A stretch of DNA of 64,000 bases. Source: an uncultured Nitrososphaeraceae archaeon (lineage in GTDB: Archaea; Thermoproteota; Nitrososphaeria; Nitrososphaerales; Nitrososphaeraceae). Under the pieces are notes generated by a model that ran no database searches, was not told where the DNA came from, and saw only the letters and a program-made list of their open reading frames with translations. Location of the stretch: assembly GCA_963779615.1 (NCBI GenBank), contig CAVZZA010000003.1:832001-896000 (forward strand), read 5' to 3'. Numbering within the stretch: the stretch's first letter is position 1; the number at the start of each line of letters is the position of its first letter. The translations under genes were made by a program, and so were the position numbers. Shown one piece after another: positions 16,031 to 57,783 of this stretch.

Positions 16031-16147
16031 TGCGGGAGGTGGGATTTGAACCCACGAACCCCTGAGAGACGGGATCCCTTATGGAGATCTTAAGTCCCGC
16101 GTCTCCAAAATTATTTAATTAATTTGGCCAGGCTCTACAACCCCCGC
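16031..16147 (-). tRNA. tRNA-Leu(UAA) with two introns (16103-16121 at ~23/24; 16076-16088 at 37/38)
   Basis: Acceptor stem GCGGGGG/CTCCCGC, anticodon arm CGGGA-CTTAAGA-TCCCG after intron removal, long variable arm, T-arm GTGGG-TTCAAAT-CCCAC. Both inserts form bulge-helix-bulge (BHB) motifs. Confidence 0.93.
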
Positions 16148-27322: not shown

Positions 27323-27404
27323 TCTGGCATAATCTGCGTAGTTTAATGATGACAATTTAGCAGATAAAAATAATAGGAATAATTGTCCAAAACAGATAGG
27401 TTAT

Positions 27405-27717
27405 GGGGTAGCCTACTAGTACCAACACGAATAAAAGGTCCCATCTCACATCTTACCAAATCCACCACGTAGACGCAACAGCATGGCTGAGCTGCCTTAG
27501 GGTTGCTCCCTCCCGGACCTCACCCATTTCGGCAATACACAGTCAAGTCCACACCTTCATGTGGTTTGCTGTTCATAGCCATCCGATACGGCATGGTTTC
27601 ATGCTGGCCAGATAAGCGGGTTCCTCCCACTCATGAATTTACCTAGTAGTTGCTGATCTCAACATGAAGCCGATTTCTGATTTGGGGCACGGCTAGCACC
27701 CCGATCCTACCTACCCC
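27405..27717 (-). ncRNA. ffs: Archaeal SRP (7S) RNA
   Basis: About 313 nt and GC-rich. The termini pair (GGGGTAG/CTACCCC). Contains the helix-8 motif GGGTGAGGTCC-GGGA-GGGAGCAACCC and an Alu-like 5' domain. Confidence 0.9.
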
Positions 27718-27852
27718 AAATATACCACTGATAAATGCAAATATAATTTTATTGGAAAAGTTATTCGGAAAAATCAAGATAAAAACAGTATGATTTTAGA
27801 GCAATAAAATTAAAAAACTTTGCAAAAAAAAAATATACAAAAGAGATGTGGA

Positions 27853-37506: not shown

Positions 37507-37659
37507 TAATACAAAAACAATGTCTTTTGATTTTTTTCTTTGTTGTTAAAATTTCAACAAAATAGAAATGACTATAAATCTGACATTTCTAAGGTTGAAC
37601 CATTTAAACAAAGATAAAATAAAATATTAGAAAGTATTATGTTAAATTGTAGCTCGGGA

Positions 37660-37800
37660 AGCCCGGTCGAACCAACAAAAGCTGAGATGTTGGTGCCGAA
37701 TCTAGCGGTCAAACTCCATGTGGGGCCAAGGATTTCAGGCTCTGGATCTTATAACAAGAAAAGAAACCTGGAGACAGCAGTTCGAATCTGCTCCGGGCTA
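37660..37800 (+). tRNA. tRNA-Gln(CUG) with three introns (37670-37700, 37713-37729, 37746-37765)
   Basis: Removing the three inserts gives the cloverleaf AGCCCGG-TC-GTCT-AGCGGTCAA-GGAT-T-TCAGG-CTCTGGA-CCTGG-AGAC-AGCAG-TTCGAAT-CTGCT-CCGGGCT-A. Confidence 0.88.
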
Positions 37801-37894
37801 CTTATGAAACAACATACCACATATCAATAAAGAAATCATATTTACATTATCAATTCAACAAAAAAGGTCATTTAATAATTCATAATGAGAGAAA

Positions 37895-39454
37895 TTATGT
37901 ATACGGACCTGCTTTAAATATTTCATCAGGTACCGGCTCAAACTTTTTGAAATTACTAATAAATAAATTTGATAACCTTTTCGCTGAAAAATCATATTGC
38001 TTTTTATCATGCCAAGTGTTTCTCGGATTTAAAATTACTGAAGGTACATCTGGACAGGAAGCAGGGTAATCAAGATTGAAAATGTCATGGTGATTATAAG
38101 ACACTTTATCCAAATGCCCATTTATAGCAGATGAAACTATTGAACGCGTATACTTTAGATCTATGCGCCTTCCAATACCATATGGCCCTCCAGACCACCC
38201 AGTATTAATAAGGTAAACCCTTGAATTATGCTTAGTGATTTTATCACCCAATAATTTAGCATATTCTGTAGCCCTAAGAGGCATAAAAGGAGCACCGAAA
38301 CATTGTGAGAAAGTCTCTTTTGGTTCGGTAATACCCCTTTCGGTTCCTGCCAATTTACTAGTATAGCCGGACATAAAATGATACATAGCTCCTTCTTTTG
38401 AGAGCCTTGAGACTGGTGGCAATACACCAAAGGCATCAGCTGTTAAAAAAATAATAACAGAAGGATGACCACAAATACTCGGTATAACTGCACCGGGAAT
38501 AAATTCAAGAGGATAAACAACTCTGGTGTTCTCAGTTGGACTACCGTCAGAAAAATCAGGTTCCCGCGTCGATGGATTGATCACCACATTTTCCATCACA
38601 GAGCCAAATCTAATTGCATTCCAAATTTGTGGCTCTTTATCCTTATCAAGATTAATGCATTTAGCATAGCACCCGCCTTCAAAATTAAAAACACCGGTAT
38701 CTGACCATCCATGCTCATCATCGCCAATCAATTTACGATTCTCATCTGCAGAAAGAGTCGTCTTCCCGGTTCCGGAAAGACCAAAAAATAATGCAGACTT
38801 ACCATCATTACCCAAATTGGCAGAACAATGCATAGGAAATATCCCTTTGGGAGGCAAAATAAAATTCATGATTGAAAACATAGACTTTTTTATTTCACCG
38901 GCATAAGATGTTGAACCCATAAGAACCAATTTCTTTTTAAAACTCATAATAATGAAAGTCTCAGATTTTGTTCCATCTGATTCTGGCAACGCAGCAAAAT
39001 TATTAATCGATAAAAGAGTAAACTCTGGAATAAAATTCACTCGTTCATCTTTAGAGGGTTTTATAAAAATCTGACTAGCAAATAAACTGTGCCAAGCTGT
39101 ATCTGTTATGATTCTAATAGATAAACGATTCAATGGATCTGCTCCTACAAATCCATCAAAAACATAAAGTTTATCAGTAATATTATTGTCATTAATAAAT
39201 TTTAGCATTTTATTCAATATCTTTTCAAAGTTTTCTTCTGATATCGGATGGTTAACCTTTCCCCAATCGACAGAATCTAAAGTAATATCATCTTTTACAA
39301 TAAATTTATCATCAGGAGATCGGCCGGTAAATTTTCCAGTCTTTACAGACAGAGAACCAGTAACAGACAATTCGCCTTCGCGATTTAGAATAGCTGATTC
39401 AACTAATAGAGGAACTGATAAATTCTTACACCCCTCATTAATTGCCAATTCCAT
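37895..39454 (-). CDS. pckA: Phosphoenolpyruvate carboxykinase (ATP)
   Basis: TGRSPDDK, YAGEIKK, MHCSAN, FFGLSGTGKTTLS and LIGDDEHGW motifs. Confidence 0.97.
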   Translation of the reverse strand: MELAINEGCKNLSVPLLVESAILNREGELSVTGSLSVKTGKFTGRSPDDKFIVKDDITLDSVDWGKVNHPISEENFEKILNKMLKFINDNNITDKLYVFDGFVGADPLNRLSIRIITDTAWHSLFASQIFIKPSKDERVNFIPEFTLLSINNFAALPESDGTKSETFIIMSFKKKLVLMGSTSYAGEIKKSMFSIMNFILPPKGIFPMHCSANLGNDGKSALFFGLSGTGKTTLSADENRKLIGDDEHGWSDTGVFNFEGGCYAKCINLDKDKEPQIWNAIRFGSVMENVVINPSTREPDFSDGSPTENTRVVYPLEFIPGAVIPSICGHPSVIIFLTADAFGVLPPVSRLSKEGAMYHFMSGYTSKLAGTERGITEPKETFSQCFGAPFMPLRATEYAKLLGDKITKHNSRVYLINTGWSGGPYGIGRRIDLKYTRSIVSSAINGHLDKVSYNHHDIFNLDYPASCPDVPSVILNPRNTWHDKKQYDFSAKRLSNLFISNFKKFEPVPDEIFKAGPYT

Positions 39455-57689: not shown

Positions 57690-57783
57690 GGTGGGGTGGC
57701 AGAGCGGCCATGCGTTCGCCTGCAGAACAAAATAACAAAATTCAGATAGCGAATATATAAGGGTTCGAATCCCTTCCCCACCT
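57690..57783 (+). tRNA. tRNA-Cys(GCA) with a canonical 37/38 intron (57726-57747)
   Basis: Acceptor GGTGGGG/CCCCACC, anticodon arm TTCGC-CTGCAG[intron]A-GCGAA, T-arm AAGGG-TTCGAAT-CCCTT. Confidence 0.92.

Follow-up and report, generated by a model that had tools for sequence, protein, structure and literature searches.

A short leader element lies immediately upstream of a three-intron tRNA-Gln(CUG) gene of the Nitrososphaerales, is complementary to the 3' acceptor strand of the same tRNA and, in a survey of relatives, accompanies the intron at position 10/11. The element is a conserved feature tied to this intron and has probably been selected, and comparison of the related loci gives good support for regarding the arrangement as a newly recognised, putative control of pre-tRNA folding. 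On alignments and folding models, we consider it slightly more probable than even that the leader acts as a decoy, which would free nt 5-8 of the tRNA for splicing of intron 1, hold the 10-nt 5' exon and delay RNase P.

The tRNA-Gln(CUG) gene and its leader

The three-intron gene is real, because its exons, joined by the coordinates given below, form a clean tRNA-Gln(CUG) cloverleaf in ARAGORN (anticodon ctg). A canonical tRNA is thereby restored on removal of the introns, and neither ARAGORN nor Rfam reports a tRNA in the unspliced sequence (37660-37800). Positions refer to the 64-kb window, the whole stretch of DNA that was analysed, and the features are as follows, with the basis for each in brackets.

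37614..37628, + strand: A/T-rich TATA-like promoter box, with AAATA at 37622-37626 (sequence)
37649..37658, + strand: leader 'pseudo-acceptor' element GTAGCTCGGG, its conserved core GTAGCTCG at 37649-37656 (sequence, alignment)
37659..37659, + strand: spacer of 1 nt between leader element and tRNA nt 1 (1-6 nt in the relatives listed)
37660..37669, + strand: tRNA-Gln(CUG) exon 1, nt 1-10 (ARAGORN on joined exons)
37660-37666, + strand: 5' acceptor strand within exon 1 (joined exons)
37664-37667, + strand: nt 5-8 (CGGT), central helix of the intron-1 splice motif (fold, alignment)
37670..37700, + strand: intron 1, 31 nt, position 10/11 (joined exons, fold, alignment), laid out as a hairpin ACCAACA/TGTTGGT, then GCCG (37695-37698, partner of nt 5-8), then AA
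37701..37712, + strand: exon 2, 5' part of the D-arm (joined exons)
37713..37729, + strand: intron 2, 17 nt, D-loop (joined exons, fold)
37730..37746, + strand: exon 3, 3' strand of the D-stem, anticodon stem and loop, anticodon CTG (joined exons)
37747..37766, + strand: intron 3, 20 nt, anticodon loop, at the canonical position within a 1-nt ambiguity (joined exons)
37767..37800, + strand: exon 4, 3' strand of the anticodon stem, variable loop, T-arm, 3' acceptor strand and discriminator (joined exons)
37792..37801, + strand: leader partner TCCGGGCTAC, comprising T65, nt 66-72, A73 and trailer C74 (sequence, fold, alignment)
37793-37799, + strand: 3' acceptor strand, nt 66-72, followed by the discriminator A37800 (nt 73) and the first trailer base, C37801

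The boundary between exon 3 and intron 3 slides by one A. The locus is 90% identical over 193 nt to L084, from Candidatus Nitrosocosmicus (Nitrososphaerales), the closest among the matches listed. A gene for ATP-dependent phosphoenolpyruvate carboxykinase (37895-39454, - strand; Pfam PEPCK_ATP, E = 7e-213) converges on the 3' end of the tRNA gene.

A preliminary description of this DNA held that the leader can form a continuous helix with the 3' end of the tRNA, and this stands: GTAGCTCGGG and TCCGGGCTAC pair antiparallel through 10 consecutive pairs, eight of them Watson-Crick and two G-U (T37654:G37796 and G37658:T37792). The partner had been labelled acceptor strand, discriminator and trailer, which is accurate for 37793-37801, whereas T37792 is nt 65 of the T-stem. 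The leader was also correctly described as GC-rich within AT-rich DNA, 7 of its 10 bases being G or C compared with 33.5% G+C in the window. Continuous helices of 10 bp or more with the same 12-nt 3' segment can form at only two further places on both strands of the window, a count that leaves out the leader itself and the trivial reverse complement of the site, and the chance of such a helix for a 30-nt leader is roughly 5 in 10,000. The 10-bp length is peculiar to the window; among the matches listed the conserved helix is 8 bp.

The window's other tRNA genes, for tRNA-Thr, tRNA-Cys and tRNA-Leu, have A/T-rich leaders in which neither GTAGCTCG nor a match to the 3' strand is found, and their introns are located elsewhere. 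The tRNA-Leu gene (16031-16147, - strand, 117 nt) is a hidden two-intron gene with inserts in the D-loop and near the anticodon, the latter being UAA or AAG by a crude test; it is missed by default ARAGORN and at the Rfam gathering threshold, and ARAGORN calls a tRNA-Leu after the D-loop stretch is deleted by coordinates. The tRNA-Cys(GCA) gene (57690-57783, + strand) contains a canonical intron of 22 nt, scores 49.6 bits in Rfam and is reported by ARAGORN only when introns are allowed. A full-length archaeal signal recognition particle RNA (108 bits) is located at 27404-27718 on the - strand.

Association of the leader with the 10/11 intron

A pattern search of genome contigs with the T-arm and 3' acceptor strand gave at least 120 loci from a collection that contains one genome per species. 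About half of the matches listed belong to Nitrososphaeria and the remainder mostly to Methanomicrobiales, the latter being intron-free 73-nt tRNA-Gln genes with an identical 3' strand, a natural control. The pattern fixes nt 49-73, and the survey covers tRNA-Gln genes with this 3' strand. Among the matches listed together with the window, 41 genes carry the 10/11 intron and 80 do not; L115 was left unscored, its 5' end being cut off, and L008 is without upstream DNA, giving 40 assessable intron-bearing genes (39 from other species and the window). The score of each gene is the greatest number of consecutive pairs, without gaps, that its 30 upstream nt can form with nt 65-73 and three trailer bases, and the scores are distributed as follows among the matches listed.

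Helix of at least 7 bp: 37 of 40 genes with the 10/11 intron; 3 of 80 without it (L024, L036 and L027)
Helix of 6 bp: 2 of 40 with the intron (L112 and L117); 7 of 80 without it
Helix of 5 bp or less: 1 of 40 with the intron (L058, 3 bp); 70 of 80 without it

Thus, the leader co-occurs with the 10/11 intron among the matches listed, as had been anticipated from the window. L117 reaches 10 bp if one A is bulged. Three tRNA-Gln(UUG) genes contain the same kind of intron downstream of different leader sequences, which still pair with the 3' strand (L016, GGTAGCTCGGA, 11 bp; L009, AGCCCGG, 7 bp; L112, TGCCCGG, 6 bp). Such a leader is absent from the intron-free Nitrososphaeria tRNA-Gln genes L025, L067 and L087. 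A crude scan of the matches listed for other tRNAs with 5'-proximal introns returned three other tRNA-like matches, none of which has such an intron. The upstream region of L058, on a 2.9-kb contig, is palindrome-rich 45 nt before the tRNA, with ACATGTATAC-like repeats and no AAATA box in range, and may have been rearranged or misassembled.

Nine Nitrososphaera loci (L012, L013, L037, L047, L060, L088, L118, L024 and L028) lack intron 1 and contain introns 2 and 3. They read AGCCCGGTCG followed by TCTAG, preceded by the same BRE/TATA region as in intron-1-bearing loci, and in all nine the leader element is absent and the distance from TATA to tRNA is ∼10 nt shorter. Their introns 2 and 3 are closest, among the matches listed, to those of the intron-1-bearing L075, L048 and L051, with the Nitrosocosmicus group farther away, and joint loss of intron 1 and leader in one event is for this reason the simpler reading of the nine-locus group. 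The co-occurrence may boil down to a few evolutionary events, this one joint loss with shared ancestry elsewhere.

Variable GTAG[TC]CG-like strings (GTAGTCGGG, GTAGCCGC, GCAGTCG and others) are located 6-16 nt past the TATA-like box in L012, L013, L037, L028 and their relatives, and might represent copies of the leader that have dropped out of transcription and are decaying, the alignment being ambiguous here. L015, a tRNA-Gln(CUG) gene without the 10/11 intron and with a different D-loop intron, has ATCTCGG one base before nt 1; this string is one base off AGCTCGG and may be a decayed decoy copy or a chance match.

The core GTAGCTCG is exact in 29 of the 37 CUG loci among the matches listed, the variants being ATAGCTCG and ACAGCTCG in two loci each and GTAGCCCG, GTAGCTTG, GTAGCTAC and ATGCTACG in one each. 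Mean pairwise identity is 0.90 for the motif but 0.33 for the preceding 20 nt (37 CUG loci listed, 35 distinct upstream sequences), and all 37 intron-1 sequences listed are different. With one genome per species in the collection, conservation of the motif extends across dozens of species whose neighbouring sequence has diverged. The spacer that follows the 8-nt core is 3 nt long in 15 of the 37 loci listed, 4 in 10, 5 in five, 6 in four, 2 in two and 1 in one. These values bear on the view that the leader is a functionless short tandem duplication of the 5' end, which arose with or near the intron and is conserved only through relatedness. The leader does resemble the 5' acceptor strand (AGCTCG versus AGCCCG) and few independent gains or losses can be counted; however, the difference in identity between the motif and its adjacent 20 nt and the 37 differing introns, all in a collection of one genome per species, count against such a neutral relic, which the comparison already disfavours and to which we assign a very small probability.

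In the 37-row alignment of the matches listed, leader pairs 1-8 are formed in 32-37 rows and pair 9 (G:C66) in seven, the usual state being a T that faces C66. Pair G1:C74 is replaced by A:U in L041 and L095, both sides having changed, and the helix there continues into the trailer; T6 to C (L049) and C7 to T (L062) each keep the pair. The covariation looked for in the leader amounts to a single compensatory event (G1:C74 to A:U), in a survey where the pattern-fixed nt 49-73 confine covariation to position 74 and the leader. The pairing of nt 5-8 with intron GCCG, also proposed from the window, holds throughout, with 4 of 4 pairs in all 37 loci listed; one-sided changes in this central helix are U:G to U:A in two of the 37 rows and G:C to G:U in one. 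The inner intron-1 helix shows double changes at 7 of 7 pairs in the same alignment, and in the whole structure 90.7% of cells are paired compared with 28-45% in slid controls, three in each direction, all of which are beaten.

The 5' splice-site bulge of intron 1 consists of three nt (C9, G10 and A) and is followed by the intron helix, and a 4-bp helix separates the two splice sites, in the window's minimum-energy structure as well. Past the 3' bulge (A, A, T11) no outer exon-exon helix can be drawn, C4 facing C12. Intron 1 fits the relaxed bulge-helix-bulge motif only, a form that needs a broad-specificity endonuclease.

Other partners and identities considered for the leader were rejected. 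It gives no convincing pairing either as the outer helix that the intron-1 motif lacks or with the D-loop exon, and the variation of the D-loop among the matches listed (TAGCGGTC or TAGTGGCC) has no counterpart in the leader. Pairing with GGGCTA at the end of intron 2 reaches at most 6 bp and is lost in the Nitrosocosmicus group, the window included. The leader copy does not qualify as the true 5' acceptor strand, because U8 would then be lacking and, in most loci listed, C66 would be opposed at position 7 by T, C or A. The likeness of GTAGCTCG to a common D-arm sequence (GGTAGCTCAG in the window's tRNA-Thr) is taken as a coincidence, since the UUG genes L009 and L112 use AGCCCGG and TGCCCGG.

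Predicted transcript start, folding models and the possible role of the leader

The motif's G1 follows the end of an AAATA by 21-23 nt in 31 of the 37 loci listed, by 22 nt in the window, and a T directly precedes G1 in 28 of the 37. The centre of an archaeal TATA box is located ∼26 nt upstream of the start site, and by this rule the spacing would place the start at or next to G1. The leader element is probably the 5' end of the primary transcript. Applied to the nine intron-1-less loci, the same rule places the start 3-4 nt before the tRNA. A literature search found no published start-site map for Nitrososphaera, and a scan for sigma-70 promoters and terminators, a method unsuited to archaea, gave nothing above shuffles. 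The complementarity of leader and 3' strand is not a chance match, given its co-occurrence with the intron, the conservation of the 8-bp core, the TATA spacing and the two-sided pair change.

A fixed distance from the TATA box is expected equally of a DNA-level initiator and of a transcript that starts at the element. The conserved sequence might therefore act in the DNA (as an initiator, an initially transcribed sequence or a factor site), its complementarity to the 3' strand being left over from a tandem duplication of the 5' end of the gene. The TATA-like spacing is indeed constant where the spacing to the tRNA varies among the matches listed, and duplication is indicated by L009, in which the first 8 bases of the gene are repeated perfectly as the leader (direct repeat AGCCCGGT, 11 nt apart), suggesting that the leader element arose via a short tandem duplication of the 5' end. 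A role confined to DNA nevertheless appears improbable to us: GTAGCTCG occurs once in the 64-kb window, on either strand, and is missing at the window's other three tRNA promoters; the nine intron-1-less loci use the same BRE/TATA region without the motif; the UUG genes have different leaders that still pair; G1:C74 to A:U alters both sides; and the GT before the copy matches A73 and C74, which copying of the 5' strand leaves unexplained.

In folding models of the window's precursor, the minimum-energy structure with the leader combines the leader helix with the motifs of introns 1 and 2 (-51.5 kcal/mol), whereas without the leader the acceptor stem is formed and the intron-1 motif is lost (-46.9 kcal/mol). 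Leader helix and acceptor stem use the same 3' bases and are mutually exclusive in these folds. Probabilities of the competing helices over the 40 loci listed are as follows.

Native leader: central helix, mean 0.30 and median 0.24; acceptor stem, 0.28
Leader absent: central helix, mean 0.004; acceptor stem, 0.98
Shuffled leader (20 per locus): central helix, mean 0.07; acceptor stem, 0.84

The native leader exceeds the shuffled leaders for the central helix in 35 of the 40 loci listed; the modelled effect is modest in many, central-helix probability reaching 0.25 in 20 of the 40. L058 and L117 contain the intron and have poor modelled decoys, with the acceptor stem at 0.96 in L117. As simple duplexes, the consensus 8-bp leader helix has an energy of -10.9 kcal/mol and the window's 10-bp helix one of -15.7, the values for acceptor stem and central helix being -13.2 and -3.6. 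By the consensus energies, leader helix and splice helix together outweigh the acceptor stem, but the leader helix alone does not.

The decoy role would operate as follows. The primary transcript probably opens with a short sequence resembling a copy of the tRNA's own 5' acceptor strand (GUAGCUCG, extended by GG in the window). This leader would pair with nt 67-74 (65-74 in the window), across the 3' acceptor strand, discriminator and first trailer base. The 10/11 intron would be cut only when nt 5-8 are paired to GCCG as the 4-bp helix of the relaxed bulge-helix-bulge motif, a pairing incompatible with acceptor pairs 5:68 to 7:66. With the 3' strand taken up by the leader, the 7-bp acceptor stem would be prevented from drawing nt 5-8 out of the splice motif, and the leader would also keep the 10-nt 5' exon on the body of the molecule through cutting and ligation. 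RNase P could cut off the leader only once the real acceptor stem takes over. We infer transcription of the leader, its action in splicing, the later displacement of its helix and the order of these events relative to RNase P.

That the leader frees the splice motif, as originally suggested, is supported by the models in one respect, the central helix being predicted only with the leader, and not in another, as the acceptor stem is not predicted to displace the leader after splicing. With intron 1 removed the leader helix is still favoured (median probability 0.85 in full-length models of the matches listed), and with all three introns removed the acceptor stem wins in 4 of the 37 loci listed; for the window, each of the eight splicing states favours the leader helix, by 1.8-4.8 kcal/mol. 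In the models the switch thus does not reset by secondary-structure energies alone. For the decoy model to hold, tertiary structure, modification or proteins would have to displace the helix, unless secondary-structure energies mislead here.

Two further roles can be considered. The leader/3'-strand helix might mainly hold the 10-nt mini-exon, whose nt 5-8 are paired to the departing intron, until ligase joins it, which would be compatible with the decoy reading. The helix exists and is linked to the 10/11 intron among the matches listed, after cleavage the 5' exon would otherwise be attached by no more than pairs 1:72 to 4:69, and complementary leaders and trailers hold split-tRNA halves according to the portions available of one account (PMC4090602). 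A pure tether need not explain, however, why the splice motif is absent from the folding models without the leader, and we regard tethering as unlikely to be the main function. The second role concerns the timing or quality control of end processing, in which the leader on nt 67-74 would keep RNase P off the unspliced precursor, would perhaps block RNase Z or CCA addition as well, and would contribute nothing to the fold of the splice motif. The leader-helix fold leaves the RNase P site single-stranded and away from any acceptor helix, and pairing of a leader with the 3' RCCA inhibits bacterial RNase P in the available part of PMC9433436. Such a device leaves the specific tie to intron 1 unexplained, the element being absent where introns 2 and 3 remain, and Methanopyrus kandleri, in the part available of PMC3695527, trims ends before splicing without one; there is little probability that end processing is what the leader serves.

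Known systems and significance

Marck and Grosjean reportedly surveyed splice motifs in 2003. Multi-intron tRNAs of Thaumarchaeota and relaxed bulge-helix-bulge introns are known from the available portions of PMC8450103, PMC3218864 and PMC4090602. Intron 1, with its 4-bp central helix, 3-nt 5' bulge and covarying inner helix, is like the non-canonical tRNA introns of Thermoproteota and Nitrososphaerota, archaea with broad-specificity endonucleases. The literature on relaxed-motif introns, in the portions available, treats the intron and its exon flanks and makes no mention of conserved leaders paired to a displaced 3' acceptor strand.

In split and permuted tRNAs (Nanoarchaeum, Caldivirga, Thermofilum, Cyanidioschyzon), outside sequence likewise pairs, holds the pieces and lets the splicing endonuclease act, as described in the available portions of PMC4090602 and PMC3218864. 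There, within the same portions, leader and trailer pair with each other to make up the bulge-helix-bulge motif itself, and the endonuclease removes the leader. In contrast, the leader described here pairs with the mature 3' acceptor strand, competes with the real 5' strand in a bulge-free helix and is presumably removed by RNase P. The locus does not behave as a split tRNA, 7 to 9 of the paired 3' bases belonging to the mature tRNA (nt 65/67-73) and only C74 to the trailer, and a leader-trailer motif for removal of the leader by the endonuclease was rejected, the helix being without bulges. Bacterial RNase P is impeded when a leader pairs with the 3' RCCA (PMC9433436), and designed leaders in synthetic RNase P riboswitches gate the enzyme (PMC8925977), both by the parts of these papers available. 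In those parts, RNase P-hindering leaders extend the acceptor stem or sequester the leader with the stem intact, whereas in the present case an intron-linked leader takes the place of the 5' strand; it is not an extension of the acceptor stem, since leader helix and stem exclude each other.

In transcription attenuators two exclusive helices share one strand and a third segment decides between them. The outcome here would differ, being the choice of an RNA-processing substrate and not termination, with neither ligand nor ribosome involved. Full-text literature searches found no published leader decoy that stands in for the 5' acceptor strand together with an acceptor-invading intron.

A more far-reaching reading, whose chances we put somewhat short of even, is that tRNA-Gln of Nitrososphaerales carries an intramolecular strand-exchange device in its first 8-10 transcribed bases. 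A weakened copy of the 5' strand, with a G-U wobble and usually a mismatch opposite C66, would capture the 3' strand, let the acceptor-invading intron fold and splice, hold the 10-nt exon and put that splicing before RNase P. If strand exchange is correct, the order of splicing and RNase P would be reversed relative to M. kandleri, in which ends are trimmed before intron removal in the available part of the report (PMC3695527). The leader would then be the first cis-acting folding aid in nature to be linked to one particular tRNA intron, and hidden leaders or trailers of a similar kind may accompany other introns that invade the acceptor stem.

Splice motifs of non-canonical introns conflict with the tRNA cloverleaf, and the route to a splice-competent fold and the order of processing are largely unknown in archaea. 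A leader that co-occurs with one intron is a concrete, mutable element through which both points could be addressed in ammonia oxidisers that can be cultured (Nitrososphaera, Nitrosocosmicus). How such introns are gained and lost could be studied in the lineage from which intron and leader are jointly absent, and the association suggests that tRNA gene finders and intron surveys should check flanking sequence for matching decoy strands.
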